This document shows, in pieces, positions 10,138-48,839 of a stretch of DNA of 64,000 nt. The notes under the pieces are model-generated. The model saw only the letters and a list, made by a program, of their open reading frames with translations. It searched no databases and had not been told where the DNA came from. The number at the start of each line of letters is the position of its first letter. The stretch's first letter is position 1. This DNA comes from Longimicrobiales bacterium. GTDB lineage: Bacteria > Gemmatimonadota > Gemmatimonadetes > Longimicrobiales > RSA9. The stretch covers positions 5,622 through 69,621 of the forward strand of contig DASVDH010000062.1 in NCBI GenBank assembly GCA_036381195.1. Reading direction: 5' to 3'. The position numbers and the translations under genes were made by a program.

Positions 10138-10250
10138 GCCTGCTACCTCCTGATGGGTATGGGTGAGGCGTGTCTCATCGATCCTCGTTCCGCGGCGCAC
10201 GGAGGCCGCCCCCCGCCCTCGCCCTCGCCCACCCTCCAGCACCGAAAACC

Positions 10251-12530: not shown

Positions 12531-12585
12531 ACTGCATCCTCCTGAAGGGGATGGATGGAGCCTCGTTCGCCCCTTGCCGATGGAT

Positions 12586-13623: not shown

Positions 13624-13789
13624 CGGCGGCACGGGCTGAGGTGCCGGCGGGACCGCGCCGCGACCGGACGCACGCGCGCACAACCGCCCGGCCGGCGGCC
13701 CGGCGAACGGGCCGGCCGGCCCACCGGAAGCGCTCTGGCTGAACGGCGGGCCATGCCCATACACACACAGGAGCGGCGATCGGACGGAT

Positions 13790-13838
13790 TGGAAACGTTT
13801 ACGGGCACACTGTAATCGTTTCCACTCCCGCCTGTCAA
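13790..13838 (-). promoter_or_regulatory. sigma70 promoter (TTGACA-N18-TACAGT) with two overlapping LacI-type operators
   Basis: Plus-strand TGGAAACGTTTACG (13790-13803) and TGTAATCGTTTCCA (13811-13824) match the LacI-family TGxAAxCGxTTxCA pattern. -35 lies at 13833-13838 and -10 at 13809-13814 on the minus strand. Confidence 0.75.
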
Positions 13839-13839
13839 G

Positions 13840-13864
13840 AGACCTCACGGCAGACCTCACGGCA
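13840..13864. repeat. Perfect 12-bp tandem duplication AGACCTCACGGC
   Basis: Copies at 13840-13851 and 13852-13863, immediately upstream of the lacI -35 box. Confidence 0.8.
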
Positions 13865-14253
13865 ACCCGCCGTGCCACCGGCGCAGCCCGGCGGACCTCG
13901 CCCGGGCGCGGGCGTACGCTGGACCCGTTTCGCGTAAGTCATTGTGCGCCTTGATGAAGCACATTTCTTGCGTCTATCCGCCGCGCTCCCCAGGACACAC
14001 CGCTTCGCTCCGCAGGACCGGCCGCCCCAGGGCGGCGCAGCCACAGGCCGATCCGCGACGCGGCGGCCACGCACCGCCCCCGGCGCGCACGGGCACCCCG
14101 CCGGCCCTTTGCGGGAAACGGAGTCGTCGAGAGGACGTCGAGCGTGAGGAGGCGCCCGGACTTCGCAACGACCAGAGCGAACGCAGGACCCGCGTCTCAC
14201 CCTCGGGCCCCGACAGGCCCGCGGCCGTTTCAGAAGTCAGCCTGGTGAATCCG

Positions 14254-19532: not shown

Positions 19533-19549
19533 ACCGTACCTCCCGCTCC

Positions 19550-22501: not shown

Positions 22502-22710
22502 ACCGACCTCCGAAGGTGGGCGAGAGGAAGCCGCAGCCAGCGGCGCAGGCCGGCCAGCCGCCCCTTCAGCAGGGGGCAGCCGGCAGGACCGAGACGTGAC
22601 AGGCCGGGCCGCGCGCTCGAGGCGCACGGGCCGGCCGGCGATCGTCACCCTCGAGTGTCACCCGAGCCCCGGGCGGGGAGCCCGCCCCGGTTCATTTCTG
22701 CGTACTCTCC

Positions 22711-32689: not shown

Positions 32690-33103
32690 CTAACGATCGC
32701 GCGCAGACGCCTGCCTGCCGGTCGCGCGGTAGTCCGCCAGCGCGTCCAGCAGCTCGTCCACGCTGAAGCCCAGCTCCAGCGCCCGGGCCACCGTCTCGCG
32801 GCAGAGCGCCGCGAACTCGCGGTGCCGCTCCCGCGCCTCCGCCGGCGGCGGCTCCAGCCGCACGAAGGTGCCTTCGCCCGGCCGCGTCGCGACCACGCCG
32901 CGCCGCTCCAGCTCCGCGTACGCCCGCTCCACGCTGCGCGGGCTCACGCCCAGCGCGATCGCGAGCTGGCGCGTCGTCGGCAGCCGCTCGCCCGTCGGCA
33001 GGCTCCCCTCCACCACCGCCAGCCACACGTCCTCCACGATCACGTGGGCCGCCGGCTCGCCGCCGCTCTCCGCCAGGCGGGCAGCGAGCCGCCGTGTGAG
33101 CAT
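32690..33103 (-). CDS. GntR-family (YtrA-like, short) transcriptional regulator
   Basis: GERLPTTRQLAIALGVSPRSVERAYAELERRGVVATRPGEGTFV winged HTH with a short C-terminal helix pair. Confidence 0.9.
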   Translation of the reverse strand: MLTRRLAARLAESGGEPAAHVIVEDVWLAVVEGSLPTGERLPTTRQLAIALGVSPRSVERAYAELERRGVVATRPGEGTFVRLEPPPAEARERHREFAALCRETVARALELGFSVDELLDALADYRATGRQASARDR

Positions 33104-33221
33104 GTCCCGTGACGCGGCCACGTGACGCCCCCGTCCTCCGTACGCGTGAACCAACCGGCTGCGTTCGACAAGGTGGCCCCCGGATCACGGAAGGGCAAGG
33201 GCAGCCGCCGGATAGGCGAAC

Positions 33222-33271
33222 GCCCCGGGGCCGGGCGGCTCGTGTGCTGCCGAACCGCCCGGCCCCGGGGC
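33222..33271. terminator. Long GC hairpin downstream of the TPR gene
   Basis: Inverted repeat GCCCCGGGGCCGGGCGG ... CCGCCCGGCCCCGGGGC. Confidence 0.5.
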
Positions 33272-33294
33272 GGGCCGCCGGAGGCGTCCTCCGC

Positions 33295-34332
33295 TCAGCC
33301 CTCCTGCCCCGTCACGCCGGGCACCTCCTCTGACCCCACGCCCCGCGGCTCAGTCGCTTCCTGCCTCCAGCGCTCCACCTCCTCCGAGAACGCGCCGGCG
33401 AGGGCGATCAGGTCCAGTGGCGTCGGCGATGTCGTCGCCGCAGCCACCCTGGACTCGACACGCTCGAGACTGACGCGCGCCTTCTCGTAGCCGGGATCCG
33501 CATCCAGCGCGGCCCGGAACGCCTGCGCCGCCTCCGGGAGGTGCCCCGTCCGCTCCAGCGCGATGCCGAGGTTGTTCTGGAACCGCGCGACGTCCGGCCG
33601 CAGCTCCGTTGCGCGCGCCAGCGGCGGCAGCGCCTCCTCGTACCGGCCCTCACGGATCATCAGCAGCCCCAGGTTGTTCATCGTCCACGCATCCCGGTGG
33701 TCCAGCACGATCGCCCGCCGGTACGCCTCCACCGCCTCCTGCACCATGCCCAGATCCGAGCGCGCGTTGCCCAGCACCCGCCACGCGGGCCCGCTCTCCG
33801 GCTTCGAGTCAACCGCCGCCTCCGCGTACTCCAACGCGTCCGAGGCCCGGCCCTGCTCGAGCAGCACGCGCGCCAGGTTCACCAGCGCCTTCTCGTGCGT
33901 CGAGTCCACCTCGAGCGTGCGCCGCAGCGCCGCCTCCGCACCCGCGTGGTCACCCGCACGCCACAGCGAGATCCCCAGCATGTAATGCCCCCACGGGTTC
34001 TCCGGCCGCCGCGAAGCGTACGCCTCGAACAGCCGGGCGGCCTCCTCGTAGTCGCCGGTCCGGAAAACCGCCTCGGCATCGCCGTAGCTGACGTTCTCCG
34101 GGACCGGCGGCTCGCTCACCGGCTCGGCGCCCGGCTCCGGCGCAGCCGTGTCCACCCCGAGGACCTCCGGCCCCGCCGCCACCACGAGCGGCTCCTCCGT
34201 CTGCGGCTGCGACCCGCTCGCGAGCGCCCGGTCCTTGCGCTCCACCTCGCACGCGGCGAGCCCCGCCGCCACGAGCAGCGCGAAGATCACCAGCGCCCTC
34301 CTCGCGTTCACTGGCCCGTACGTTCTCGTCAT
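33295..34332 (-). CDS. Tetratricopeptide-repeat lipoprotein
   Basis: Lipobox LAAC and about six TPR units (e.g. AWRVLGNARSDLG, TMNNLGLLMI, FQNNLGIAL). ATG at 34332. Confidence 0.9.
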   Translation of the reverse strand: MTRTYGPVNARRALVIFALLVAAGLAACEVERKDRALASGSQPQTEEPLVVAAGPEVLGVDTAAPEPGAEPVSEPPVPENVSYGDAEAVFRTGDYEEAARLFEAYASRRPENPWGHYMLGISLWRAGDHAGAEAALRRTLEVDSTHEKALVNLARVLLEQGRASDALEYAEAAVDSKPESGPAWRVLGNARSDLGMVQEAVEAYRRAIVLDHRDAWTMNNLGLLMIREGRYEEALPPLARATELRPDVARFQNNLGIALERTGHLPEAAQAFRAALDADPGYEKARVSLERVESRVAAATTSPTPLDLIALAGAFSEEVERWRQEATEPRGVGSEEVPGVTGQEG

Positions 34333-34439
34333 GGCCCCTCCTCGCGTCGTGCGCCGTCCCCGGCGCGGTTGGTTGGGTTGCTCGGCGCGGCAGGAGAGCA
34401 AGCGCGCCGCCAGGGCGGGCGCCGGCATGCCTGCATCGG

Positions 34440-34467
34440 CGTAACGATCAGCGGCACAGCGAGTTAC
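34440..34467 (-). promoter_or_regulatory. Possible ECF-sigma promoter (GTAAC-N16-CGTT) upstream of the TPR gene
   Basis: The minus strand reads GTAACTCGCTGTGCCGCTGATCGTTACG, matching the ECF AAC/CGT consensus. Confidence 0.4.
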
Positions 34468-34587
34468 GACGTGCGCACGGAGGGTCGCCCCCCGCTCCCG
34501 GCCGCCGGATTCGTGTACGGACGGACACGCCCGCACGGCCCCGCCCGTGTGCACGCGGACACGCCGAGCGAGCAGTCAACGGCGCAG

Positions 34588-34630
34588 AAAAACAGGGGCC
34601 GGCTCCTCTCGTCTCGAGAGGAGCCGGCCC
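34588..34630 (-). terminator. Rho-independent terminator of the TBDR-PorV operon
   Basis: 16-bp stem GGGCCGGCTCCTCTCG/CGAGAGGAGCCGGCCC with an A5 run on the plus strand (U-tract on minus). A second hairpin lies at about 34654-34696. Confidence 0.75.
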
Positions 34631-34702
34631 TCGCTCCGCCATCGCGCGGGGATGGGTGCGGGTGCCGTGGCACGGGCCACGGCACCCGTCCCACCCGCGC
34701 CC

Positions 34703-36538
34703 TCAGCGGAAGAGCGCCTCGGGCAGCGGGCCGGAGAGCACGATGTGCGGCGCGATCCCCTGCGCCCCCACCTTGGGCTGGAGCGTGACGCGCAGGCTCT
34801 GGAACGCGGTCCAGGGTTGGCCGACGTCGGCCGCATCGATGTAGAAGCCCGCCTCGAGGATCTCGCCGGCCGTGACGACGTCGAAGGAGTCGTCCACGTC
34901 GGCGTCTCGCAGGGAGGCGAGGTCCGGGGGCGGAGTGGTGAGAGGCCCGAGCTCCAGCGCGGTGCCGTCCTCGGCGACCAGCCACAGCGCGTAGTAGTAG
35001 CCGACGGGCGGCCTGCGCAGGTTCTGGAACGCGATGCCCAGGCGGTCCGCCCAGAAGGAGCCCTTCGCCCCGCCGGTCGCCTGGAACAGCCGCGGGTTGC
35101 GGGGCGCGGCGAGATCGAGCGTGCCGAAGCCCACTGGCCCCTGGACCAGCGCATCATCCGCCGGGTCGGCCGTTCCACCGTCGTCGAGGTAGGGCACCCA
35201 GAGCGGGACCGCGCCCGTCGGCTCGCTCGTCCCGAGGGCGATCAGCACGTGCGTGTAGTCCCCGGTCGCCACGCCATCGAGCGTCTCGGAGTTGAGCACG
35301 AAGTGGTGCCGCTCGTCCGCCGCCCCCGCGTTGAACGTGGCCGTCCGGACGGTCGGCTGCGGATCGTCCTCGTAGATCGGGTTCCCCTCGTCGTCCACGC
35401 CCGTCTGCACGCGGAGGATCCGCGTGTAGTCGGCCGTCGCGGCGGCGAGATTGCCGGTGCGGGAGTCGAACAGCCAGAGACTGTACTCGGTGCCGGCCAG
35501 CGGCGCGAGCGACGTGGTGGTGAATTCGAGCGCACTCACCCGCGCCTCTACGCCCGGCACGTCGATCAGGTCGATCCGGTCCTCGAAGAGCGGGAACGGG
35601 GCGAACGCGTTGGGCAGCGGGTTGCCGGCGAGGTCCAGGTCCACGCCGAGCTGGATGCGCAGCACGGGCGGCCCGAGGTCCGGCGGCTCGCCCTGGTAGA
35701 CCACGACGTAGTTGTACTGGTACGCCGGCACCGGACCCGTGCCGAGCACGTTCGGCACCACGATGGACGAGTCGGGAACGGGCGGGCCGCTCTGGTTCTG
35801 GTACCATGCCCAGGGCGTGCCCATGCAGTAGTCGGCGGTGCCCACGCCCGAGCCGTCGGCGGCGAACGCGCCCAGGTACCACGGATTCGGCAGCGGGTCC
35901 GGGATCGGCTCGGCCTGGCACCCGGCGTTGTCCGTCCACGCGTAATCGTTCGCCGGGTACCCGCCCGCGGTGCCGCCCAGCGGGACCAGCTCGTCCGGCT
36001 CGGTCACCTCGCCGTACAGGATCATCTCGAGGTGGTCGACGAGGCCGTTCACCCTCGTGGCCAGCCGCTCGAGCGCGAAGGTGTAGACCGCGCCGGGCTC
36101 CAGCCCGGTCCACCGCATGTACAGGTCCCACATGTTCGCGCCCCAGTACTCGGGGCCCATGATCCGCGCGAACGCAGTGCTGACGGCGGACGGGTCGGGC
36201 AGCGGTGCGAGCGCGGGGAGCCGCGGGTCCTGTCCAGCGATCCGCGTGCCGGCGTGCACCTCGTACCGGCTGTTGGCGGAGTTGTAGTAGCCGTCCTTGC
36301 CCGCACGCTGGAACGCGTCGGGGTTGCCTTCCACGTCCGCGACCAGCTCGAAGCTCGTGATCGTGGACTCGCCGCCGGGGAACCCACCCGCGTCCTTGAG
36401 GTCGAGCAGGAAATCATCGGAGTCGCCGTCCAGCGACCTGTCTGGCCCCACGAACCGCTCCTGCTCGCAGGCCGTGAGCGTCGCGACGACGCCGACGATG
36501 GCGAGAAGTCTGAGGTCGAAGCGCATCACGGTTCTCAT
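34703..36538 (-). CDS. Acidic lipoprotein of unknown function with RskA-C-like repeats
   Basis: Lipobox LTAC. Repeats LAPLAGTEYSLWLFD and NLRRPPVGYYYALWLV...RVTLQP. ATGA-coupled to the upstream OMP. Confidence 0.75.
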   Translation of the reverse strand: MRTVMRFDLRLLAIVGVVATLTACEQERFVGPDRSLDGDSDDFLLDLKDAGGFPGGESTITSFELVADVEGNPDAFQRAGKDGYYNSANSRYEVHAGTRIAGQDPRLPALAPLPDPSAVSTAFARIMGPEYWGANMWDLYMRWTGLEPGAVYTFALERLATRVNGLVDHLEMILYGEVTEPDELVPLGGTAGGYPANDYAWTDNAGCQAEPIPDPLPNPWYLGAFAADGSGVGTADYCMGTPWAWYQNQSGPPVPDSSIVVPNVLGTGPVPAYQYNYVVVYQGEPPDLGPPVLRIQLGVDLDLAGNPLPNAFAPFPLFEDRIDLIDVPGVEARVSALEFTTTSLAPLAGTEYSLWLFDSRTGNLAAATADYTRILRVQTGVDDEGNPIYEDDPQPTVRTATFNAGAADERHHFVLNSETLDGVATGDYTHVLIALGTSEPTGAVPLWVPYLDDGGTADPADDALVQGPVGFGTLDLAAPRNPRLFQATGGAKGSFWADRLGIAFQNLRRPPVGYYYALWLVAEDGTALELGPLTTPPPDLASLRDADVDDSFDVVTAGEILEAGFYIDAADVGQPWTAFQSLRVTLQPKVGAQGIAPHIVLSGPLPEALFR

Positions 36539-37218
36539 CTCCCTTGCTCGCCCGGGACGAAGCTGAAGGCGAGAGAGAAGCGCAGGTTGTGTACGGTGCT
36601 CTTCGCCTCCGGGATGTCCGGGTTGGGATGTGGCATGGTCCGGTCGATGTAGAGCGGGTCGACGACGCTGAACACCTCGCGGTCGAAGCCGGTATAGATC
36701 TCGTCGCGCACATCGAGGCGCAGGCCGATGGTGCCCGCGCTCATGAGCTGGATCCCGCCGCCGACCATCCAGGTCGAGAAGCCCTCACTGTGCTGGCCGC
36801 GGTTCTGCTCGGGATCCATGAAGAAGCGCGTGCGCCCCAGGCCGGCGGTCACGTACGGCACCAGACTCTGGGCCAGGGGGAAGCGCAGCACGCCCGCGAG
36901 GCCGAACCCGATCTGCGTCACTTCCTGGTCCGGCAGGTAGCGGAACGTGCTGTCCTCGAACTCGAGCCCCACCAGCGGGAAATACTCGCCCTTCGTCGTG
37001 GGTCGCCCGACCGAGAGGTAGCCGCCCACGCCGATCGCCCCGGTCGCGAAGTACACCGCCTCGATGCCCGCAGCCGGCCCGTTCTCGAGCGCGGCGGCAT
37101 CGTCGAAGCGCTGCCAGCCGAGCAGCGTGTTCACCTCGAACTCTCCCGGCCGCGCCTGGGCAGCGAGCGGCGCGGCGGCCATCAGGGCCAGGAGCACGGT
37201 CCCGAAAACGGTTCGCAT
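36535..37218 (-). CDS. Small outer-membrane beta-barrel (OmpA-N/porin-like)
   Basis: Signal peptide, PYVTAGLG, alternating beta-strands (GLRLDVRD) and terminal strand NLRFSLAFSF. Confidence 0.8.
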   Translation of the reverse strand: MRTVFGTVLLALMAAAPLAAQARPGEFEVNTLLGWQRFDDAAALENGPAAGIEAVYFATGAIGVGGYLSVGRPTTKGEYFPLVGLEFEDSTFRYLPDQEVTQIGFGLAGVLRFPLAQSLVPYVTAGLGRTRFFMDPEQNRGQHSEGFSTWMVGGGIQLMSAGTIGLRLDVRDEIYTGFDREVFSVVDPLYIDRTMPHPNPDIPEAKSTVHNLRFSLAFSFVPGEQGR

Positions 37219-37230
37219 GCCGCGCCTCCT

Positions 37231-38355
37231 CTAGAATCCGAACTCGAAGGAGAAGACCTGGTTGTGCCCGAGGGCGTCACCGAGGGCCGTGTACGCGTAA
37301 TCGAGCGCGATCCTGCGGTCCCCGACGGGGAGCCGCAGGCCGAGGCCGCCGGACAGGCCATCGGTGAACTCCCAGCCGGCCCGCGGCTCGTTGCGGAAGT
37401 GCTTGCCCGCGCGCACGAAGAACATCCCGCGGTACGAGTACTCCGCCCCGAACGACGGCTCCATGAGACTCGTCGTCGCGTCCTGGATCGAGGTGAGGAA
37501 GGCGAGCCCGTGGTCGGCGCTCGGCCCGAGGATCGCGTCCGGCGCGCCGTAGAGCTCCGCCCGGATTCCGAAGCGGAACGCGGTCGGGAGCTGGAGCTTC
37601 CGCGTGCGGAGCTCCACATCCACCGGGTCGCCGGAAGGAATCGTCCCCTGGTTCGGCGACGAGGGCATCACGGTCTCGATCGCGCCGCCGCGGAACTGGC
37701 CGGTGGTGCCCACGTTCACGACGGCGGCCCCCATCGTGATACCGTAGATCCCGGTGTGGAAGATCGTGGAGAGGTCGAGGCCCACGTAGCTCGCGGTCGC
37801 CTGCGTGATCCCCTCCTGGATGTACTTGGCGCTGATGCCCACGTTGAGCCGGTCGGTGATCGCGCGGCTGTAATGCAGCCCAAACGCCGTGCCCGCCCAC
37901 TCCACGAACTCGGCGCGCTGCGGGTCGCCCCCGGTCGGCCACTGCTCGGTCGTCACGCGGACGTCTCCGGACGAGAAGCGCGTCAGCGAGGCGCCGATCA
38001 CGTTCCCCGGCGAGAGCGGCAGCGCCGCGGCGAGGTAGGTGTGAGTCACGCCGGAGGAGCCGTACAGCTCCGCGTAGCTGACCGCGCCGGAGACGCCCTG
38101 GATCCCGACGATCGCGGAGGAGTTCCAGTAGAGCGAGTTGAGCCCCTCGGCCGCCGCGACCACGGCGCCGCCCAGCGCGAGCTCCCTGGCGCCCACGCCG
38201 ATCTCGAGGAAGTTCGCCCCGCGCGTCCCCACCCGCGTGATCCCGCGGTTGGGGTCCGACTGGAGTTGTGTGCCCTGGCGCTGCGCCCACCCTGTCGTGG
38301 TGGTGGACGCCAGCAGAACGAGCGCCGTCAGGCAGGTCCTGATTCGCATGGTCAT
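37231..38355 (-). CDS. PorV/PorQ-family (FadL-like) outer-membrane barrel
   Basis: Signature VGTRGANFLEIGVGARELALGGA...SLYWN, LPTAFRFG, ALDYAY and terminal F. Confidence 0.85.
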   Translation of the reverse strand: MTMRIRTCLTALVLLASTTTTGWAQRQGTQLQSDPNRGITRVGTRGANFLEIGVGARELALGGAVVAAAEGLNSLYWNSSAIVGIQGVSGAVSYAELYGSSGVTHTYLAAALPLSPGNVIGASLTRFSSGDVRVTTEQWPTGGDPQRAEFVEWAGTAFGLHYSRAITDRLNVGISAKYIQEGITQATASYVGLDLSTIFHTGIYGITMGAAVVNVGTTGQFRGGAIETVMPSSPNQGTIPSGDPVDVELRTRKLQLPTAFRFGIRAELYGAPDAILGPSADHGLAFLTSIQDATTSLMEPSFGAEYSYRGMFFVRAGKHFRNEPRAGWEFTDGLSGGLGLRLPVGDRRIALDYAYTALGDALGHNQVFSFEFGF

Positions 38356-38362
38356 CCCCACC

Positions 38363-41300
38363 TCAGCGGATCACGATGAACTTGCCGAGCTTGCGGCGCG
38401 TGGCGCCGGTCTCGGGGTCGCGCGCCGTCACGACGAACATGTAGAAGCCCGCGGCGAGGTCGGTCTCCTCGTGCGTCCTCATGTTCCAGAAGAGATCGCC
38501 GTCGCCGGTCAGGTCCTGCGGCGTCCACGTGATGCGTTGCACGAACTGCCCCGCCGCCGTGTAGATGGTGATCTCACCGCTCGGCGGCAGGTTCGTGAAC
38601 GCCAGCCGCGCGCCGTCGCCCGCGACCTCGTACGCCGAGGCGACGACGTACGGGTTCGGCACGACCAGCACGTCATCCAGCGAGTGTCGGCCGAGCGAAG
38701 CGATGGCCTCGCCCCGCACGCTCGGCGAGACGGTGAACGCCAGCTCCACGCCGGAGCGCAGCGGGATGCCGAACCGCGCCACCAACGTGTAGTCCGGCCG
38801 CATCCGGTTGTAGCCGCCGCTCGTACCCGGCCCGACCACCGGGTTGCAGCTCGGGAGGTCGCCGGAGCAGCCGATCCGGGCGGGCGCCCACGTCACGGCG
38901 AGCTGCGGCGCGTACACCGGCTGCCCATCTTGCAGCACGACTTCACCCGCAGCGTCCGTCTGCGCGACCGGAACCTCCTCGAGGAGGTAGACGGGCGTGC
39001 CGGGCATCCACTTCCCTTCGGGCACCCGGATCCACGCCGTATCCGCGCCGGAGCCGATCCGGATCGCTTCCGGCAGGTCTGCGGCCAGCACGGCCACGGT
39101 CACGGGCCGGTTGCCGTACGACGCGTTGGTGATCGTGAAGGGCAATCCGACGGCCGCCAATTCGTCCGGCGACACGGTGCGGCCCAGGGCCGCGCTCAGC
39201 GCGTCCGCGACCGCCTGCCCCGTCGCCGAGGTCGCGGCATCGGCCCGCCGCGCGATCGCGTCCTCCACCACGGCGCGCGTCGCGTCCCGGTCCATGGCGT
39301 TGATCCGGAACGGCGCGGTGCTGCCGTACGGATCGTCACTCCAGCGGATCAGGTAGCGGCCGTAGGACGCGCCCGTCGCGGTGCCGCCGAGGAAGCGCTG
39401 GAACGGCCACGCGTCGCTGTTCGGGATGACCTCGTCCTGCGCGTTGCGGTACTCGGTCGGGTACTGCCTGCCCAGCGAGTCCCGTACGCTCACGATGAGG
39501 CCCGGGAACTCCGGCCGGCCGAAGATGGCGTTCGGCGTGAAGCTGGACGAGAGGTTGGCCGAGACGTAGAGCGGCTCGCCCGCGCCGGTCACCAGGATCC
39601 CCGCGCGCGCGCGCACCCGCGTCTCCTCGGAATCCGCGGTGCTCGTGCGGACCAGCGCGGTGTCCGGCCCCGTGACCAGGATCCCCGTCGGCTGCGTGGA
39701 CTTCCAGCGCAGCGGCGCCGCGGCCGAGTAGTCCTTGTAGACCGGCGCGCCGCCCGGTCCGAAGCCGACCAGCGCAGAGCGGTACGCGCTCACGATGGTG
39801 CTGTCCCGTGCCTCCGCCGGGCCGTACGCCGTGACGACGACCGAGTCCACGAACACCAGTCGGTACGAGACCTCGGCGTCCAGCTCCTCGACCACGTCCA
39901 CGACGACGTTCGCCAGGCCCGCCGTCGCGCCGTCTACCACGAACGGTGTGCCGACGAAGCCGGGCGACGTCCAGAGCCCGCCGCTCAACCCGTCCAGGGC
40001 GATGCGCGCGCCCCGGCCGCCCGCCTGCGAGCTGATCGGCACGTAGACGCTCTCCACGTTGGGCAGAGAGGGGTTCGTCGCCAGCGTGTTCCGCGTCGGC
40101 GGCGTCACCTCGTAGACGGTGCGGTCCACGCCGTCGAACACGCCGTCTTCATCGACGTCCACGCTGTCCCAGACGGTGAAGCGGATGCCAGGGCTCTCGG
40201 CCACGAACGCGTACAGGTAACTCTGGCCCGGCAGCACATAGGGATCCTCGTAGACGGTCGGGAAATCGCCACTCGAGTTCCTGACGATCTGGTCGTAGGC
40301 TTGCCAGCCCGGCGAGACGGTGTTGCCCAGATCGTCCTCGAGCGGCGCGGCCCGGCAGCGGCCGCTCTGCGGCGTGTCGTCCGCCGTGAAGGTCGCCCCG
40401 CCGTCGCACGACTTGTAGACGAGGATCCGGCTGACGTTGCCGTGGTTGTACGCCCGGATGCTGTCCACCAGCCAGGGGTTCAGCGCGTACAGCCGCTCGA
40501 GGCGCGTGTCGCCCGTCGTGCCCTGCTCGATCTTGTCCGCGAGCCGCGCGGTGTACTCGTCCACCCACTGCGAGGCCGCATCATCCAGGAAGATGCGGAC
40601 CCGCGGCTGGCCCAGGTCGCGAATGCCGCCCTGCGCCGTGGCGCGGATCGTGACCGGGGCGGGCACGTCCGGCCCGAGGTAGAAGTCCCGATAGAACTGG
40701 TACGTGTTCTCGAGCAGCGCCGCGAACTGCGCGGAGTCCACCGCGGCGAGGAACGCGACGGTGAAGCCGACCGAGTCTCCGGCCTTGAGCGGGAACGGGC
40801 CCGCGCCGGACCAGGTGTTGTTGTACGAGTAGTTGCCCGTCCCGTCCGGGAGCGTGTCGGACCACAGCGCCACGCACGCGTTCAGCACGGGGTTGCAGGT
40901 GTCGAAGAACAGCGTGTCCGGCCCCGTCGCGGGCGCGCCCTCCGGGCGGTTCGTGTAGGTCCAGTTCGGGTCGGGCACGTACCAGTTGAAGCAGCCCGGC
41001 CCGCGCGGATCGTTGGCGATGTCGCAGCGCTCGGCGCCCGGGCCCGAGCCGTTGTAGGGTTTGATCAGCATCCACGTGTCGTAGCCGGTCATCGCCGCGG
41101 GATCCCGGCCGTTCAGCGCGTCCGCCGTGTTGGCCGCGATCACGCCGTAGCCGCCGCGCCGGTCCGGCCCGAGGAACTGGATCTGCCCGCACTCGAAGCC
41201 GCAGAGCGACATCCGGTTGAACGTGATGGTGTCGCCGGCGAGTGGATGGCTGGGGTCGTAGAACGGGGAGTTCGGATCCGAGAAGTGCTTGTTGCGCAGG

Positions 41301-42580
41301 TCGCCGATGGGGCTCTTCAGCCACATGATGCCGGTGGCGCCGACACGGAAGCCGCGCCCCACACGCGCCCGCAGCGCCGGACAGTTGATCCAGTCCACGT
41401 CCGGCGGGATCTCGAGCCCGTCACAGTCGGGCGTCCGCCCCAGCTCGTTGGAGACCACCGCGCCGCGCTCGACGATCGCGTGCACCGCGGCGCGCCGGCC
41501 GCTCCCGGGCGGCGCACGCAGCCAGCGGGTCTGGAAGCCGAAGTACAGCGAGTCGTAGTCCAGCCCGACGCCGTACACTTCCTCGGTGTTGTTGATCAGC
41601 ACGCCCTGGAGGATGAACATCCCGGCGACGGTCGGGACGTTGAACGTGAAGGCGTCGAACGCGATGTCGATGCCGAGCGGGTATCCCTCGAGCTGCGGGT
41701 CACCCGTCCCGCCGGGGACCACGCTGCCGTACATGGCCCGGATCTCGCGCCCGTGATCGCTCATCATGCCGAACGTCTGGAACGCCGTGCCGATGAACTG
41801 GCGATTCGGGTCGTGCAGCTCTTCCGGGACGAGCCACCAGTCGAAGGTGAACTGGGAGCCCCTCTGCCGGAAGAACTCCTCCCAGCCTTCCTGCGAGATC
41901 GGGCGCGCGCCCTGCCAGCCGGCGCTGCCCCAGGTTTCCGGGCAGTCCGAGCCGGCCATGAGCGGGAAGCCCGCCTGGATGAACGAGGCCGTGTGGTTCT
42001 TGCAGGTGTCGTCGTTCGTGGACTGGGCGCCCGAGTGGAGCACGCCGAACGAGCCGTCGTGGGCGGTGAAGTGCTCGATGTCGGGGTAGAGGTTGGTCTC
42101 CCACATGTAGCCGCCGCCGATCACGTTCTGCAGGCTCGCGACCGTCTCGCGGTGGCGCCGCCACTCGCTGGGCGCCGCCGCGATGTACGGCTGGAGGTCG
42201 AAGACCTCCCAGACCCAGGTGCTCGGCCCCGCCTCGACGCCGCGCTTCTGGATGGGTGGGTAATCGGTGCGCTGCCACGGCCCCATGCCGTAGTTGCCGA
42301 CCCAGAACGCGATGTTCTGGGAGGCGGCGCGCAGGCCGGTGTACGCGATATCACCCTGGCCGCGCAGGTTGAACGGCGAGCGTGCCAGGAAATCAGCGTC
42401 GCACAGGCGCGCGGGCGGCGGGACCCGCGGGTTCTCCCACTCCTCGCACGGCGTCGGCACGCCGGCTGGTGGCTGCCTGAACGCCTGGGCCGCGAGGTCC
42501 GCCGGCGCCGCCAGGCCGATGGCCGCCGCGAGGGCGAGGAGACGCAGGTGAGCCGGGGGTTTCTGCATCAGGATCCTCAT
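38363..42580 (-). CDS. Large secreted protein (1405 aa) with T9SS type-A-like C-terminal sorting domain
   Basis: Signal peptide and a Cys-rich N-half. C-terminus VLVVPNPY...FTNLP...ITIYTAAGQFV...WNMRT...AAGFYMFVV...KLGKFIVIR is CTD-like. Contains a DVDEDG Ca-binding-like loop. Confidence 0.8.
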   Translation of the reverse strand: MRILMQKPPAHLRLLALAAAIGLAAPADLAAQAFRQPPAGVPTPCEEWENPRVPPPARLCDADFLARSPFNLRGQGDIAYTGLRAASQNIAFWVGNYGMGPWQRTDYPPIQKRGVEAGPSTWVWEVFDLQPYIAAAPSEWRRHRETVASLQNVIGGGYMWETNLYPDIEHFTAHDGSFGVLHSGAQSTNDDTCKNHTASFIQAGFPLMAGSDCPETWGSAGWQGARPISQEGWEEFFRQRGSQFTFDWWLVPEELHDPNRQFIGTAFQTFGMMSDHGREIRAMYGSVVPGGTGDPQLEGYPLGIDIAFDAFTFNVPTVAGMFILQGVLINNTEEVYGVGLDYDSLYFGFQTRWLRAPPGSGRRAAVHAIVERGAVVSNELGRTPDCDGLEIPPDVDWINCPALRARVGRGFRVGATGIMWLKSPIGDLRNKHFSDPNSPFYDPSHPLAGDTITFNRMSLCGFECGQIQFLGPDRRGGYGVIAANTADALNGRDPAAMTGYDTWMLIKPYNGSGPGAERCDIANDPRGPGCFNWYVPDPNWTYTNRPEGAPATGPDTLFFDTCNPVLNACVALWSDTLPDGTGNYSYNNTWSGAGPFPLKAGDSVGFTVAFLAAVDSAQFAALLENTYQFYRDFYLGPDVPAPVTIRATAQGGIRDLGQPRVRIFLDDAASQWVDEYTARLADKIEQGTTGDTRLERLYALNPWLVDSIRAYNHGNVSRILVYKSCDGGATFTADDTPQSGRCRAAPLEDDLGNTVSPGWQAYDQIVRNSSGDFPTVYEDPYVLPGQSYLYAFVAESPGIRFTVWDSVDVDEDGVFDGVDRTVYEVTPPTRNTLATNPSLPNVESVYVPISSQAGGRGARIALDGLSGGLWTSPGFVGTPFVVDGATAGLANVVVDVVEELDAEVSYRLVFVDSVVVTAYGPAEARDSTIVSAYRSALVGFGPGGAPVYKDYSAAAPLRWKSTQPTGILVTGPDTALVRTSTADSEETRVRARAGILVTGAGEPLYVSANLSSSFTPNAIFGRPEFPGLIVSVRDSLGRQYPTEYRNAQDEVIPNSDAWPFQRFLGGTATGASYGRYLIRWSDDPYGSTAPFRINAMDRDATRAVVEDAIARRADAATSATGQAVADALSAALGRTVSPDELAAVGLPFTITNASYGNRPVTVAVLAADLPEAIRIGSGADTAWIRVPEGKWMPGTPVYLLEEVPVAQTDAAGEVVLQDGQPVYAPQLAVTWAPARIGCSGDLPSCNPVVGPGTSGGYNRMRPDYTLVARFGIPLRSGVELAFTVSPSVRGEAIASLGRHSLDDVLVVPNPYVVASAYEVAGDGARLAFTNLPPSGEITIYTAAGQFVQRITWTPQDLTGDGDLFWNMRTHEETDLAAGFYMFVVTARDPETGATRRKLGKFIVIR

Positions 42581-42614
42581 CCGTTCCTCTTCGTCGACTT
42601 GATCCGGTCGATGC

Positions 42615-45600
42615 TCAGAAGGTCACGCGGATGCCCGCGTTGATCGCACGCGGCGCCGCCACCATGTCGGGGCGGTCCCAGATGTCGGCGGTCGTCGAGG
42701 TCTCCGAGATGCTGCCGCCGCCGATCACGTCGAACCGGCCAGCCATGCCGCTGCCGCCCTCGCAGTCGCCCGTCGTGGGGAAGACCTGCAGGCAGTTGCG
42801 GCGGTTGAACAGGTTCGTGATGCGCACGAACGCGCCGTAGCGGAGGTTCGCCACCTGCCAGTCCTTGCGGAGCAGCAGGTTCACGTTGAAGGTCGCCGGG
42901 CTCGTCCCGCTGTTCCGCTCCGCGTCCCCCACGGCGTAGGCCAGCTCCGGCGTGTACGGCAGGCCGCTCGCCGCGCGCAGCGTGACGCTGGCCGACGTGT
43001 TGCGCAGCAGGTTGCCCAGCGGGATGTCCGGCGCGTCATTGCCCACCGCGAAGCGCAGCACGCCGTTGAAGACGTGCGCCTGGTCGATCTCCGAGCGGAT
43101 CTCCTGGTAGGCCGGCGGGTCGTTCTGCGCCTGCTTCAGCATCTCGAGGTCGGGCGGCGCCGCGTTCGTCCGCATCTGCGAGAGGGAGTAGCGCAGGTCG
43201 AACCCCCAGTAGTCGCCCAGCCGCCGCGCGAGCGAGACCTCGAGCCCCCGCACCGTCTGGTAGTCCAGGTTCAGCAGCACGGTGTAGCTCGGCGTCGAGC
43301 TGTTGTTGTAGTTCGCGCCCGGGTCGAATACCGGCGTGCCCGCCTCCGTCACACCGCCGCGGCGGATCCCCGTCAAGCCGAGCTGGTCCTTGTTGAACAG
43401 CACGGCCGAGAGCGCGTAGTTGTCGAACAGCTCCGCGAGGAAGCCGAACTCGTAGGAGGACGTCTGCTCCGTCACGAGCTGCGGGTTGCCGATCAGGATG
43501 CTGCCGGTCTCGTGGAAGAACCGCGCCGCCTGCGGCGTACCCTCCAGCGGCGTGCCAATCCCCGTGCCGCGATACATGTTGTGCAGCAAGGGGTTCTGGC
43601 TGTAACGCCCGAAGTTGAAGAAGAAGCTCGAGTTCTCGGTCACCGGCACGCTCACGCCGAGACGCGGCGACCACTGCTTGCGGACGGGCGCCTCCTTGAA
43701 GTCGTCCTTCATCGCGACCGCGTTCGCCTCGTCGAACAGGGCCCTGTCCAGGCCGCACGCCTGCACGCCCGTGTACACGGCGCCCGTGGCCGTGTCGACG
43801 TACTGGAACCTGTCCGCCGGCAGGCCGAACGCGGTCGGGTTCTCGCACACGTGATAGAGCGTCGTGCCGTTCGTCGGGTCGCGCGGGTTCGCCCAGAACA
43901 GCCCGTCCGCGCGGCCGTAGTCGAACCGGAACCCGAGGTTCACGCGCAGGAAGTCGAACTCGATGTTGTCCTGGACGTACGCCGCCGCATCCCACGGCTT
44001 GGCCGCGTAGCGGGAGATGTCCAGCGCGACGTTGTTCAGGCCGACCTGCTGGAACTCCTCGAAGGCGACGTCATGGCGCTGGAAGAAGACGCCGGCCTTG
44101 ATGTTGTGGTGGTCGCCGAGCTGCGTCTGCAGGTCGAACCGGCCGACCCACGTCTTCAGCTCCTCGCCCCCGTAGATCTTGTCCGTGCCGAAGAACGGCT
44201 GACGCCCGTACGCGCGGGAGGAGCCCGTGGTGTGGAAGGGGCCCGCCCAGTACGTGTAGGCCATCCGGTCCTCGATGCACACGCCGCTCACGAACGTGCA
44301 CGTCGTGCGGTTCTGGTCGAAGCGCCCGATCGCCGCCGTGTAGGCCGTCCGGCTCAGCGTGTGGTCCCACTTGAGCACCCAGAGCCGCCGGTTCTGGTTG
44401 ATCGAGCTCTGGAGCACGTACTGCTGCTCCTGGTTCGTCGCCTGGAGGTCCTCGATGACCTGCGGATCCACCCCGTTCAGGAACACGGTGCGGCAGATGT
44501 CCTCGCTGTCCGGGTACAGCTCCGTGCAGCGGCCGAACATGTCGAAGCCGCTGCGCAGCCAGCTGAACATGTAGGGCTGCGTCTGCCGCTGATAGTCCAG
44601 ACCGAGGAAGGAGAGCTTCGCCGCCGGCGTGAAGTAGTAGGTCAGCTTGCCGTAGAGGTCCCGCCGGCTGTCGAAGCCGAGCTGACGGTAGCCCGGGAAG
44701 AGGTCGTAGATGCTCGCGTAGCGGTTCGCCAGGTCACGCTCGCTCGCGTACGGGTTGTAGACCAGGTCGTCGAACTTGAGCACCCGGCCCACGCCGGACT
44801 CGAACTGCGCCGCCGCCATGAAGCGCAGCTTGTTCGAGGTGAGCGGCACCGGCCCGCTCACGAAGCCGTCGAGCTGCTCCCATTCCCGCATCTCGTCGTA
44901 CTCGGAGCCCAGTGCGCCGCCCACCGCCGAGGTCTGGTACTCGATCGCGCCCTCGAGCTCCTCACCCCCCTCGCGGGTCGCGATGTTGATCACGCCCGAG
45001 AGCGCGTTGCCGTACTGCGCCTCGAACCCGCCCCGCAGGTAGTCCACCTGCTCGACGGCCTTGCTCGGCAGGAACATCGCCGGCCCGCCGAACACGAAGT
45101 TGTTGATCGGGATGCCATCCACCAGCGTCAGGGTCTCGCCCTGCCGGCCGCCCCGGATGCGCACCGGCGTGAGCCCGCGCCGCTGCTCGTCGTAGCTGAT
45201 GACGTCCGTGTTCTGCGGCACCTCCAGGAACCCGTGCTGCAACGCCAGCACGCCCTGCAGGTCGTTCACCGGCAGCGCCTGGATCTGCTCCGCCGTGATC
45301 ACGTTGGAGGCGCCCGTCGCCCGCGTCTCGATCAGCGGAACGCGTTCCGCCTCCACCACGACGGCTTCCACCGCCAGGGCCTCGCTGGGCAGCTCGAAGT
45401 CCACCGTGCGCGTGACGTCGATCGAAACCTGCACGTTCTCCTTGCGCACAGTCGCGTACCCGATGAGCTGCGCCGAGACCGTGTAGACGCCGGGTGGGAC
45501 GTTGATCAGGAAGTAGCGCCCGTTCTCCTGCGTCAGCACGCTGCGCCCGGTTCCCTCCACGGTCACCTGGGCGCCCGCCAGCGGCTCCCCCGTCGCCGCA

Positions 45601-45722
45601 TCGGTGACCAGCCCCGTCAGCTTGCCGGTCTGCGCCTGCGCCGGACGGGCGCTCAGCGCCGCGAGCGCGAGCAGGGCCAGGCCACTTCCGAGGATGGCTC
45701 TCATCCTGGTGGGGGACATCAT
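42615..45722 (-). CDS. TonB-dependent receptor with carboxypeptidase-like N-domain
   Basis: QTGKLTGLVTD, IRGGRQGETLTLVDGIPI, GGFEAQYGNALSGVINIATREG, SPRLGVSVP and terminal GIRVTF. RBS GGAGG. Confidence 0.93.
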   Translation of the reverse strand: MMSPTRMRAILGSGLALLALAALSARPAQAQTGKLTGLVTDAATGEPLAGAQVTVEGTGRSVLTQENGRYFLINVPPGVYTVSAQLIGYATVRKENVQVSIDVTRTVDFELPSEALAVEAVVVEAERVPLIETRATGASNVITAEQIQALPVNDLQGVLALQHGFLEVPQNTDVISYDEQRRGLTPVRIRGGRQGETLTLVDGIPINNFVFGGPAMFLPSKAVEQVDYLRGGFEAQYGNALSGVINIATREGGEELEGAIEYQTSAVGGALGSEYDEMREWEQLDGFVSGPVPLTSNKLRFMAAAQFESGVGRVLKFDDLVYNPYASERDLANRYASIYDLFPGYRQLGFDSRRDLYGKLTYYFTPAAKLSFLGLDYQRQTQPYMFSWLRSGFDMFGRCTELYPDSEDICRTVFLNGVDPQVIEDLQATNQEQQYVLQSSINQNRRLWVLKWDHTLSRTAYTAAIGRFDQNRTTCTFVSGVCIEDRMAYTYWAGPFHTTGSSRAYGRQPFFGTDKIYGGEELKTWVGRFDLQTQLGDHHNIKAGVFFQRHDVAFEEFQQVGLNNVALDISRYAAKPWDAAAYVQDNIEFDFLRVNLGFRFDYGRADGLFWANPRDPTNGTTLYHVCENPTAFGLPADRFQYVDTATGAVYTGVQACGLDRALFDEANAVAMKDDFKEAPVRKQWSPRLGVSVPVTENSSFFFNFGRYSQNPLLHNMYRGTGIGTPLEGTPQAARFFHETGSILIGNPQLVTEQTSSYEFGFLAELFDNYALSAVLFNKDQLGLTGIRRGGVTEAGTPVFDPGANYNNSSTPSYTVLLNLDYQTVRGLEVSLARRLGDYWGFDLRYSLSQMRTNAAPPDLEMLKQAQNDPPAYQEIRSEIDQAHVFNGVLRFAVGNDAPDIPLGNLLRNTSASVTLRAASGLPYTPELAYAVGDAERNSGTSPATFNVNLLLRKDWQVANLRYGAFVRITNLFNRRNCLQVFPTTGDCEGGSGMAGRFDVIGGGSISETSTTADIWDRPDMVAAPRAINAGIRVTF

Positions 45723-45897
45723 CGGCACCTCCGTACGCCGTTGGAACTTGAACGGAGAAAATCGGCACGGCTGCGCGCAGCCGGGTGAAGAGCACGCCAA
45801 GGCGCGCCGGCAATTCGCATCATCGCAGTCCACAGAATGAGGAGCAGAATGCAGGGCTGTGCGCTACACTGCGTCCAAACACCGGACTACAGCCGCT

Positions 45898-45927
45898 ACT
45901 CTACACGCCACCCACCACCCCTGTCAA
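45898..45927 (-). promoter_or_regulatory. Putative sigma70 promoter TTGACA-N18-TAGAGT
   Basis: tgtcaa at 45922-45927 and actcta at 45898-45903. Confidence 0.6.
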
Positions 45928-46541
45928 GCAAACTCCGTCCACGCCACGGCCGGACCACCCCCGGCCCATCCCCACAACGCGCCGGGCGCCCCGTTCCTGA
46001 CAGTCGCCCGCTTGCTGCCCAGACCCTACACGCCGGCCCCGCCGGAGCACGCACGCCCCGGGGGCACCGGTCGGAACGCCTGGAGGCACGGCAGGGCCCG
46101 GGCCCGGCGGTCCCGCCCGCGAGAGTCCCCGGAACGGGGCTTGCCCCGCCACGCCGCCCGCTCTCCCTCGACCGGCCCGCCGCCGCGGAGCGTGCCCCCG
46201 CGACGGAGCCTCCGCCACCGAGTGTGCTCCTGATCCAGGGAGCTCCGTCGTGGAGCATACTCCCACCACGGAGCCGTCATCGCGAAGCGCGCTCCTACCA
46301 GGGGAACCCGCCGACCGTGCTCCGACCGCGGAGCCCCGCCGCCAAGCGTGCTGCGGTCACCGGGCGTGCTGCCACCACCCGCCGCCATCGGTGCGCCTCC
46401 GCGCGGAAGCCCCGCAGCATGGAGGCCCGGTGGCGCCAGCCGCATGGCCACAGGGGAGCACGCGCGCGTGCGCCCCGTGACCGGCCGCCGCTCGCCGCCG
46501 CCCCGTGCCTCCGGGCACGATCCTCGCCCCGGTGGCAGGGC

Positions 46542-48839
46542 ATGATGCGGAGGGGATCGCACGCTTCCACGCGCAGCCCTGTCCGGCCACAGGACGCGGC
46601 AGGAACGGCGACCCGACCCGGCGCACACGCCGGGGGCACGTGGTTGCTTGTCGAAGAAGGGTTCGACCTCGCCCGGGAGCACGAGGTCGAGTCGCTCCTG
46701 GCGATCTCGAACGGCTATCTCGGCGTGCGGGCTTCCCTCGCCGAGGGCAGCGAGTTCTCGGCGCCGGCGACGTTCGTGGCGGGCATCTTCGGCGTGCACC
46801 CCGGGGAGGGCTCAGCCCCGGAGCTGGTCGCCGGGCCGGACTGCACCCGCCTCCGGCTGGTGGCCGGCGGGGAGGAGATCCGTCTGGAGAGCGGCGAGGC
46901 GCTCGAGCACCGGCGCGTCCTGGATCTGCGCCGCGGCGTGCTGCGGCGCGAGTGGCGGCACCGCACGCCGGCGGGGCGGATCACGCGCATCCGCGAGGTG
47001 CGTCTCGCCTCGTTGAGCGACCGTCACGTGATCCTCCAGATGGTGGAGCTCACGCCGGAGAACTACGGAGCGCAGGTGCTGGTCGAGAGCCGGATCGAGG
47101 CGGCGGTGCCGGTGCCGCCGCTGACCACCCCGCCGCCGGACCTCGTGCCGCTCCGCCTCGCGGCCGGGCCCGTGGCGGATGCTGGGCCGCCGCGGCTCGC
47201 GCTGCGCGCGCAGGGGACGGACGCCGTCATCGCCTTCGCGGTGGCGAGCACGCTGTGGCCCAGGGCTGCGGAGGGGCGCGTGCCGGAGGTGGAAGCGGCG
47301 CCCGGCCGCGTCGCGGAGCGGTGGGAGTTCGCCGCGGAGATGGGCAAGACCTACCGGCTCGTGCGCATGGTGGCGGTACACACGTCGCGCGATGCGGACG
47401 CGCCCGCAGGCGCGGCGGCCGCCCGTGCCGCGCGCCTCGCCGCCGCCGGCGCCGAGCGCATCGTGAGCGCACACGTGGCTGCGTGGAACGAGCGGTGGCG
47501 GGCTGCGGACGTCGAGATCGACGGGGACGACGACGCTCAGCGCGCGTTGCGCTTCGCGTGTTATCACCTGATCGCTGCCGCAGATCCCAGGGATGAACGC
47601 GTCTCGATCGGCGCGCGCCTGCTCACGGGCGGCGTCTACAAGGGGCACGTGTTCTGGGACGTCGAGATCTACATGCTCCCGTTCTACGTGTTCACGCACC
47701 CGCCGGCGGCGCGTGCGCTGCTCATGTACCGCTGGCACACGTTGCCGGCGGCGCGCGAGAAGGCGCGCGCGCTGGGCTGGCGCGGCGCGCTGTACGCGTG
47801 GGAGTCCGCGGCGACGGGCGAGGAGACGACGCCGCCTGCCGTGGTGGCGCCGGATGGCGAGGTGGTGGTGATCCGGAACGGCGAGCAGGAGAACCACATC
47901 AGCGCGGACGTGGCGTACGGCGTGTGGCAGTACTGGCACGCCACGGGCGACGATGGCTTCCTGCTGGATGCCGGCGCGGAGATCCTGATCGAGACCGCGC
48001 GCTTCTGGGTCAGCCGCGTCGAACCGGGCGGGGATGGCCGCTACCACATCCGCCACGTGATCGGCCCGGACGAGTACCACGAGGATGTGGACGACAACGC
48101 CTACACCAACGTGATGGCGCAGTGGAACCTGGAGCGCGCGCTGGAGGTGGTGCGGCTCGTGCGGGAGCGCTGGCCGGAGCGGTGGCGCGAGCTCGAGCGA
48201 CGGCTGGGGGTCGAGCCCGGCGAGCCGGAGTCGTGGGGCGACATCGCCGCGGCGATGTACACGGGCTTCGACCCGGCGACCGGCCTGTTCGAACAGTTTC
48301 GGGGTTATCACGCGCTCGAGGAGGTGGACCTTGCCGCGTACGATCTGCGGTCAGGCCCCGCCGACGTGCTGCTCGGACGGGAGCGGACGCGGCGCAGCAA
48401 GGTGCTCAAGCAGGCGGACGTGGTGCTCCTGATGTACCTGCTGTGGGACCGCTTCACGCCAGAGGTGAGGCAGGCGAACTTCCGGTACTACGAGCCACGT
48501 TGCGCGCACGGCAGCTCGCTCAGCCCTTCGATCCACGCGCTGGTCGCGGCGCGTTTGGGCGAGGTGGAGATCGCGCGGCACTACTTCCGCCAGGCCGCCC
48601 AGATCGACCTCGCGAACAACATGGGCAACGCCGCGGGCGGCGTGCACGGCGCGGCGCTGGGCGGGCTGTGGCAAGCGGCGGTGTTCGGCTTCGCGGGGCT
48701 GCACTTCGGGCAGAACGGCCCGGAGGTCGGGCCACACCTCCCGCCGGGCTGGCGCGGCTTGCGCTTTCCCATCCGGTGGCGTGGGAGATCGATGGAGCTG
48801 CGGGCGAGCGCAGGACCGCAGCAGGAGGTGGAGGCGTGA
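46542..48839 (+). CDS. GH65 disaccharide phosphorylase (trehalose/maltose/kojibiose phosphorylase family)
   Basis: Motifs ESLLAISNGYLGVR, YKGHVFWDVE, GALYAWES, VIGPDEYHE, KQADV and HGSSLS. The start is uncertain (ATG 46542 used). Confidence 0.92.
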   Translation: MMRRGSHASTRSPVRPQDAAGTATRPGAHAGGTWLLVEEGFDLAREHEVESLLAISNGYLGVRASLAEGSEFSAPATFVAGIFGVHPGEGSAPELVAGPDCTRLRLVAGGEEIRLESGEALEHRRVLDLRRGVLRREWRHRTPAGRITRIREVRLASLSDRHVILQMVELTPENYGAQVLVESRIEAAVPVPPLTTPPPDLVPLRLAAGPVADAGPPRLALRAQGTDAVIAFAVASTLWPRAAEGRVPEVEAAPGRVAERWEFAAEMGKTYRLVRMVAVHTSRDADAPAGAAAARAARLAAAGAERIVSAHVAAWNERWRAADVEIDGDDDAQRALRFACYHLIAAADPRDERVSIGARLLTGGVYKGHVFWDVEIYMLPFYVFTHPPAARALLMYRWHTLPAAREKARALGWRGALYAWESAATGEETTPPAVVAPDGEVVVIRNGEQENHISADVAYGVWQYWHATGDDGFLLDAGAEILIETARFWVSRVEPGGDGRYHIRHVIGPDEYHEDVDDNAYTNVMAQWNLERALEVVRLVRERWPERWRELERRLGVEPGEPESWGDIAAAMYTGFDPATGLFEQFRGYHALEEVDLAAYDLRSGPADVLLGRERTRRSKVLKQADVVLLMYLLWDRFTPEVRQANFRYYEPRCAHGSSLSPSIHALVAARLGEVEIARHYFRQAAQIDLANNMGNAAGGVHGAALGGLWQAAVFGFAGLHFGQNGPEVGPHLPPGWRGLRFPIRWRGRSMELRASAGPQQEVEA

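Follow-up and report, generated by a model that had tools for sequence, protein, structure and literature searches.

A conserved gene cassette for a TonB-dependent receptor, a predicted type IX secretion cargo and a PorV-family barrel in Longimicrobiales and other FCB lineages

The DNA examined in this study is a 64,000-nucleotide stretch of contig DASVDH010000062.1 (positions 5,622-69,621) from a Longimicrobiales bacterium of the phylum Gemmatimonadota. We refer to this stretch as the window, and it supplies the coordinates given below unless a locus is named. An earlier note on this DNA had claimed five packed genes on the minus strand, and open reading frames (ORFs) were indeed recovered as it had placed and sized them. 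In the direction of transcription these encode a TonB-dependent receptor (TBDR; 42615-45722, 1035 aa), a large secreted surface protein that we call the cargo (38363-42580, 1405 aa, 309 homologues), a cassette-specific paralogue of the PorV/PorQ barrel family (37231-38355; 374 aa from an ATG start or 376 aa from a GTG at 38361), and two apparent accessories, a small outer-membrane beta-barrel that matches PF13505 of Pfam (36535-37218, 227 aa) and an acidic lipoprotein (34703-36538, 611 aa, pI 4.15). The intergenic distances are 34, 7 (1 if the GTG start of the PorV-family gene is used), 12 and -4 bp, and the GC content at third codon positions is 0.91-0.97 across the five ORFs.

The same note had set these genes between one promoter and one terminator, of which the terminator has fared better. 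A candidate intrinsic terminator on the minus strand (34586-34630), 72 nt beyond the last stop codon, would form a strongly terminator-like hairpin with a 16-bp stem, 13 G-C pairs and a T-tail, the hairpin and tail running from 34630 to 34596. The candidate sigma-70-like promoter TTGACA-18-TAGAGT (45898-45927, minus strand) is well placed and is the sole match to this motif in 14 kb, but with a chance expectation of 0.5 +/- 0.7 it does not rise statistically above chance.

The first gene product carries a signal peptide, an N-terminal CarboxypepD_reg domain, a plug, a TonB barrel and a C-terminal Phe (domains from Pfam and NCBIfam), together with a stretch, EAVVVEA, that we take to be TonB-box-like. 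The genome holds seven TonB_C matches, and the protein can thus be assigned to the TonB-dependent receptors by its plug, barrel, terminal Phe and the presence of TonB. Mean identity among homologues is 46% in the barrel and 54% in the N-terminal part plus plug. The receptor belongs to a cassette-specific subfamily and scores only 56 bits on the SusC model, whose cut-off is 368; among the 24 TBDR-like ORFs of this genome, a gene with a type IX secretion system (T9SS) C-terminal domain (CTD) adjoins members of this subfamily only. As the earlier note had it, there is neither a SusD nor a recognisable enzyme family among the Pfam and NCBIfam matches of the five proteins. A SusC/SusD identity for the locus was rejected on these two results.

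The cargo begins with a signal peptide, as read from its sequence. Its residues 33-860 and 851-1405 were modelled separately with AlphaFold2 from 57-sequence alignments, giving a predicted local distance difference test score (pLDDT) of 89. In these models, residues ~75-635 (40676-42358; pLDDT 89) form a beta-supersandwich of the galactose-mutarotase-like type with a linker helix. Next come a predicted fibronectin type III (FN3) domain with insertions (residues ~637-852, 40025-40672; VIA Z 10.5, root-mean-square deviation (rmsd) 2.2, 94 residues aligned), a beta-rich variable stalk region (residues ~860-1290, 38711-40003), which is the least conserved part at 28% mean identity, and a predicted T9SS CTD of the PorZ/PorU uncleaved kind (residues ~1295-1405, 38366-38698), all on the minus strand.

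The supersandwich finds its best match in the N-terminal domain of glucoamylase (VIA Z 15.5, rmsd 3.3, 234 aligned), followed by the N-domains of GH94 and GH65 enzymes; the GH15, GH94 and GH65 group as a whole spans Z 13-15.5 at 6-12% identity and shares with the cargo both the fold and the linker helix. In those enzymes a catalytic (alpha/alpha)6 barrel follows, whereas DSSP analysis of the models over residues 33-1405 reveals no such barrel after the supersandwich, only FN3 and beta domains. An identity as a GH15, GH65 or GH94 enzyme was rejected for this reason. Foldseek returned nothing under E 0.001 for the N-terminal part, a sequence search of the PDB gave a weak Fn3 match only, and a single-sequence scan of the genome_contigs collection with the cargo gave no match. 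The ESM Atlas places the cargo in unnamed clusters only, and its named homologues are hypothetical proteins of Gemmatimonadota. Eight residues (D77, D175, D275, D427, R429, D450, D555 and D575) are invariant in 115 homologues. Homology to the Ignavibacteria-type cargos extends over the full length (904 columns; hhalign 100%, E 9e-55), which places both in one superfamily. Near the N terminus, residues 66-79 (within 40001-42484) form a nearly invariant motif with F70, L72, D77 and A79; because a model of the isolated domain has low confidence at residues 66-72, this segment is a candidate for binding a partner.

The earlier note had read the C terminus as a type-A-CTD-like domain, and the last ~110 residues are indeed predicted to fold like a T9SS CTD. 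The model is closest to PorZ (VIA Z 10.5, rmsd 3.0, 94 aligned) and PorU (Z 9.3, rmsd 3.0, 89 aligned), then the peptidase domain of Vpr (9.1) and the released cargos NucA (7.6), mirolase (7.3) and RemA (6.7); PorZ is also the best Foldseek match (E 8.6e-5). By sequence, the cargo has weak matches at its C terminus only, to FlgD_ig and to the PorU and PorZ CTDs (E 0.003-0.005). The domain therefore appears to be a T9SS CTD of the uncleaved type found in PorU and PorZ, as opposed to a generic type A signal. The generic type A model TIGR04183 matched neither the cargo nor the genome, but the same search matched no control either. The CTDs of PorU and PorZ are described as the uncleaved ones (PMC10947112). 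Across 36 loci the CTD is the most conserved domain of the cargo (51% identity, versus 28-39% elsewhere), and a Lys or Arg opens its last strand in 115/115 homologues (position 1400). This residue may be equivalent to K1110 of RemZ, a conserved CTD lysine reported to contact PorV (PMC10994853).

The third protein scores 141.6 bits on the PorV/PorQ family model NF033709 (cut-off 90) and so belongs to this family, but it falls below the equivalog cut-offs for PorV (61 of 250 bits), PorQ (45 of 220) and PorV2 (84 of 325), and its similarity to the solved PorV structure is weak (E 0.084). A quick tree of 63 barrels, 38 of them from cassettes, points the same way. References for core (porU-linked) PorV, PorQ and PorV2 each formed a starred group of their own. 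None of the 38 cassette barrels falls within the core PorV or PorQ group, and PorV2 is nearest to the window's subfamily, with a support of 87, unstarred. Scores and tree thus bear out the suggestion of a locus-specific PorV paralogue, and a core PorV or PorQ identity was rejected. Three PorV-family genes are present in this genome, each directly 3' of a CTD gene, and the same holds for 5/5 PorV-family genes of a 99%-complete congener. A clade of unpaired PorV proteins in several Gemmatimonadota (L087, L090, L093, L095), with only a weak match in this genome, is a candidate general carrier.

Gene order was surveyed from two directions, and both surveys upheld the proposed conservation. We collected 40 PorV-centred loci of the phylum from among the best-scoring matches, and 35 of these are intact TBDR-CTD-PorV cassettes; two more are frameshifted, one is cut by a contig end, and the remaining two are pairs of CTD-like and PorV genes without a TBDR. 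We also used aligned cassette TBDRs as the query for a scan of GTDB contigs and took the best 80 of 589 confirmed loci, which were not chosen by their downstream genes. All 53 of these 80 with at least 6 kb of downstream sequence carry a CTD gene and then a PorV gene within 6.5 kb, and four of the other 27, which are too short downstream, still show the CTD-PorV pair. An extra gene or a frameshift separates the TBDR from the CTD gene in four of these 57 loci. Because the query was built from cassette TBDRs, this test of gene order speaks for the subfamily and not for TBDRs at large. Chance adjacency of the genes was rejected: the cassette is real, ancient and strongly conserved. Pairwise-identity correlations between its parts range from 0.33 to 0.75; these reflect shared ancestry and are not used as evidence of co-evolution.

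Judging from record titles and tree labels, cassettes occur in Gemmatimonadota, Ignavibacteriota, Calditrichota, Rhodothermota, Balneolota, Fidelibacterota, Cloacimonadota, KSB1 and Bacteroidota, and in one genome (G005) 11 of the 13 PorV loci are cassettes. The locus had been put forward as an importer of a non-Bacteroidota FCB lineage. The cassette is FCB-wide and extends to the Bacteroidota-related Rhodothermales, Balneolaceae and Ignavibacteria, so the restriction does not hold.

The window's own subfamily was examined in 79 metagenome loci, near-duplicates included. Among the evaluable cases, the TBDR lies upstream of the cargo in 58/64, and PorV, the small barrel and the lipoprotein are present in 50/57, 43/48 and 30/39, respectively; some misses are frameshifts and others are real orphan cargos. 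The small barrel and the lipoprotein were seen solely with this Gemmatimonadota subfamily among the loci examined, and other subfamilies have different downstream genes or none, so that the conserved core is the three genes for TBDR, cargo and PorV. The lipoprotein itself has an LTAC lipobox whose Cys24 is invariant in 13/13 aligned sequences. It shows a weak RskA_C-like match, RskA_C leads below 0.9 in the ESM Atlas, and a sequence search of the PDB gave no useful match. Orphan second copies of the cargo occur at L275:9806-14020 and L282:12140-15709, and an 882-aa form in L270/L272 joins the supersandwich and FN3 domains to a different CTD.

Two further cassettes of this kind lie elsewhere in the same genome. 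A paralogous one on contig C4 (L079:2262-11817) has the order TBDR, cargo, PorV and small barrel without the lipoprotein, its cargo being 37% identical, and a third TBDR-cargo pair on C31 (L296:1-6499) is cut by the contig end. On C35 (L080:2852-6439 and downstream; congener L085:9984-12905), the gene for an S8-type protease with a CTD immediately precedes a PorV-family gene of its own and has no TBDR gene as a neighbour, an arrangement conserved in the congener. Only four CTD genes were detected in this genome, and the fourth encodes a CTD-only protein of 150 aa.

The reading in the earlier note presupposes a SprA-like translocon. The genome encodes a SprA ORF of 2084 aa, which scores 518 bits with its neighbours against a cut-off of 200, and SprA was found in 23/23 genomes behind the GTDB loci. 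We compared the occurrence of SprA with that of a strong PorV-family match (E<1e-15) in 151 genomes of the phylum, which are related and hence not independent. Both are present in 117 genomes and both absent from 28, while SprA alone and PorV alone account for 3 genomes each. A broad CTD profile behaves likewise, with no matches in four SprA-negative genomes of the class and 1-6 in each of 10/10 SprA-positive ones. The same profile detects 40 and 100 CTD genes in two PorU-bearing genomes (G008 and G155), both of them motor-less. SprA has been called FCB-specific (PMC12611786) and T9SSs are said possibly to occur in Gemmatimonadetes (PMC11285876), so SprA outside Bacteroidota is not in itself new.

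Other familiar components were not recovered. No PorU or other C25 peptidase was found in this genome, and PorU is missing in 9/9 class relatives, whereas it exceeds the cut-off in 23/26 other genomes; no known peptidase is therefore present to cut the CTD. GldL, GldM and GldN were likewise not found in this genome, where very divergent homologues are possible and GldK was outside the search. GldM was found in 0/35 genomes, compared with 15/61 drawn from the phylum of G154, and GldL and GldN in 0/16 genomes, compared with 3/3 positive controls.

Some additional observations concern the T9SS genes. The sprA gene (L081:3254-9508, C22) sits immediately upstream of what look like the type IV pilus genes pilB, pilT and pilC, and in many genomes of family f4 a cassette is located ~15-20 kb from sprA. 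The CTD-only protein of ~150 aa (L290:3988-4440, equivalent to G000:C69:51987-52439, and L291-L295) has a signal peptide and a type-A-like CTD. Among the genomes listed it occurs in 9/10 SprA-positive and 0/4 SprA-negative members of the class, often beside genes that we take to be selB- and recO-like. It could possibly be a placeholder, plug or regulator of a minimal T9SS.

Known systems provide useful comparisons. In the T9SS attachment complex of Porphyromonas gingivalis, the PorU-PorV and PorZ-PorQ pairs each hold an uncleaved CTD protein on a PorV-family barrel (PMC10947112). The cassette resembles these pairs in its predicted CTD fold and in its layout, since a CTD gene directly precedes the barrel gene just as in porU-porV (L181-L185). 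It differs in that the cargo is neither a sortase nor PorZ, in that the barrel lies below the cut-offs and outside the clades of both PorV and PorQ, and in that cargo and barrel come with a TBDR gene and in multiple copies. Type B T9SS cargos, for their part, are surface-bound and have one PorP/SprF carrier each, often encoded by an adjacent gene (PMC12635249, PMC9143113). The cassette departs from this pattern with its PorU/PorZ/type-A-like CTD and PorV/PorQ-family carrier and with GldL, GldM and GldN not found, and no type B CTD or PorP/SprF model matched any of the five proteins in Pfam and NCBIfam scans. According to the published models, type A cargos share one general carrier while type B cargos have dedicated ones (PMC12635249, PMC10994853, PMC9143113). 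Judged by its genes, the cassette appears to apply the logic of a dedicated carrier to a PorU/PorZ-like CTD. Finally, SusC/SusD systems such as RagA/RagB likewise have a TBDR with an N-terminal CarboxypepD_reg domain, its gene directly followed by that for a surface partner. Here, however, the partner is a 150-kDa T9SS-type protein rather than a lipid-anchored SusD, and there is no conserved neighbourhood of carbohydrate-active enzymes. We found no description of a TBDR-CTD-PorV cassette in the open-access literature, subscription papers being outside that search.

The window also carries two ordinary sugar-uptake loci. One is a TBDR and SusD-family pair (18288-22648); the other (4238-13878) combines a TBDR of the Oar type with genes for GH3, a glucoamylase-like protein, a sodium:solute symporter and LacI.

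We propose that the cargo is exported via SprA, kept uncleaved on its own PorV, and used as a SusD-like capture partner of the TBDR, a reading to which we assign a probability of roughly 0.55. The cargo would leave the cytoplasm by Sec export, and the private PorV would recognise the CTD in SprA. The uncleaved protein would then stay at the surface on this barrel because no PorU is present to cut the CTD. There, the beta-supersandwich would bind a large solute for import by the TBDR with TonB energy; an oligosaccharide or some other fragment of a polymer is the most plausible candidate. The small barrel and lipoprotein would act as lineage-specific accessories. By analogy with PorU-PorV and PorZ-PorQ, it is very probable that SprA exports the cargo and that the neighbouring PorV retains it. 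Cooperation between cargo and TBDR, to which the coupling of their genes points, is plausible but unproven, and we lean towards it. A supersandwich of carbohydrate-enzyme type without its catalytic barrel also fits a role in capture. Co-folding of a homologous pair from L118 (TBDR barrel without plug, residues 226-819, with cargo residues 24-398) gave a score of 0.00, which weighs neither way.

Several observations weigh against this proposal. A shared fold shows no function, and the genome (4.09 Mb) is 89% complete. Since NF033709 also matches in B. thetaiotaomicron, a species described as having no T9SS (PMC11285876), membership of the barrel family alone proves little. Some SprA-positive relatives (L087, L090, L093, L095) carry a PorV paralogue without an adjacent CTD gene, and the PorV loci retrieved from G101 include no cassette, so that one-to-one pairing of CTD and PorV is not universal in the class. 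Nor is the cargo always co-encoded with a TBDR, as orphan cargos without an adjacent TBDR or PorV occur in L257, L249 and L287 and as second copies in L275 and L282, and L270/L272 have a PorV (upstream) but no adjoining TBDR. No conserved neighbour indicates a substrate, the largest neighbour cluster comprising 9 of 91 loci, and no riboswitch was found by Rfam, which matched no family within window positions 33000-47000 and only a tRNA in seven homologous loci. Moreover, an energy chain is reported to be needed to pull carrier and cargo off SprA (PMC10994853); because the known chain was not found, completion of export is unexplained.

Of the alternatives, the one that survives best, though we regard it as unlikely, holds that the PorV-anchored cargo is a surface enzyme with a catalytic supersandwich whose products the TBDR imports. 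Supersandwich folds do include aldose 1-epimerases and GH174 (Z 10.2-10.9), several Asp and Arg residues are invariant in the 115 cargo homologues, and the third PorV of this genome pairs with an S8-type protease. However, the best matches are the non-catalytic N-domains of the GH15, GH94 and GH65 enzymes, with no (alpha/alpha)6 barrel to follow; few polar residues (D275 and N330) carry over, by eye, to the Ignavibacteria-type family; and no enzyme family or solved enzyme was matched by sequence.

We give still less weight to the idea that the cassette is an adhesin or structural surface complex, with the TBDR as a scaffold or signalling partner rather than an importer. The size of the cargo, with its multiple beta domains, FN3 and variable stalk, would suit such a role, as would the lack of metabolic neighbours, the many paralogues per genome and the orphan copies. 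Against it, the TBDR is well conserved, retains its plug, TonB-box-like stretch and C-terminal Phe, is accompanied by TonB genes in the genome, and precedes the cargo in 58 of the 64 evaluable subfamily loci.

The missing motor invites a further explanation, namely that the TBDR serves export, either by using TonB energy to release PorV-cargo from SprA without GldLM or by secreting the cargo in an Oar-like manner. Release from SprA is described as the energy-requiring step (PMC10994853) and Oar of Myxococcus as required for PopC secretion (PMC6434023), and the failure to detect GldM, GldL and GldN was accompanied by positive controls. Yet the motor-less genomes G008 and G155 carry 40-100 CTD genes, far above the number of cassettes, and the S8-PorV pair of this genome has no TBDR beside it. 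A TBDR provided for each cargo therefore cannot be the general energiser. SprA, furthermore, tracks the presence of PorV, and we consider this explanation improbable.

Least credible is that the PorV-like protein has nothing to do with CTD binding and works as a channel or assembly factor of the FadL/BamG type, its gene being merely co-regulated with the others. In favour of this, the FadL family includes PorV, PorP and BamG alike (PMC9143113, PMC12611786), the PorV/PorQ family model matches a T9SS-less control, and similarity to the solved PorV is weak. Against it, the barrel scores only 15.5 on BamG (cut-off 250), follows the CTD gene directly in 53/53 evaluable loci, copy for copy in multi-cassette genomes, and co-occurs with SprA.

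Our preferred reading, in which the cargo is a PorV-anchored capture partner of the TBDR, would represent a third way of giving a TonB-dependent transporter a surface partner, and the cassette joins two hallmark systems of FCB bacteria, the T9SS and TBDR uptake. The cassette also makes less sharp the published distinction between type A cargos, with one carrier in common, and type B cargos as the sole kind with carriers of their own. More tentatively, and with the odds somewhat against us, we suggest that these cassettes constitute an ancient, FCB-wide class of TonB-dependent importers in which a giant T9SS client, held on a private PorV, serves as the capture subunit, and that the T9SS of this bacterial class may have been stripped down to SprA and a few carrier-cargo pairs, without a sortase or known motor, and may exist largely to assemble these machines. 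If this is true, export through SprA would work without the GldLM energy chain, and the occurrence of SprA without detectable GldL, GldM or GldN makes the motor requirement of the T9SS directly testable in a minimal system. Given its spread over many phyla and the presence of at least 11 copies in one genome, the cassette may explain how poorly studied lineages of soil, sediment and digesters forage.

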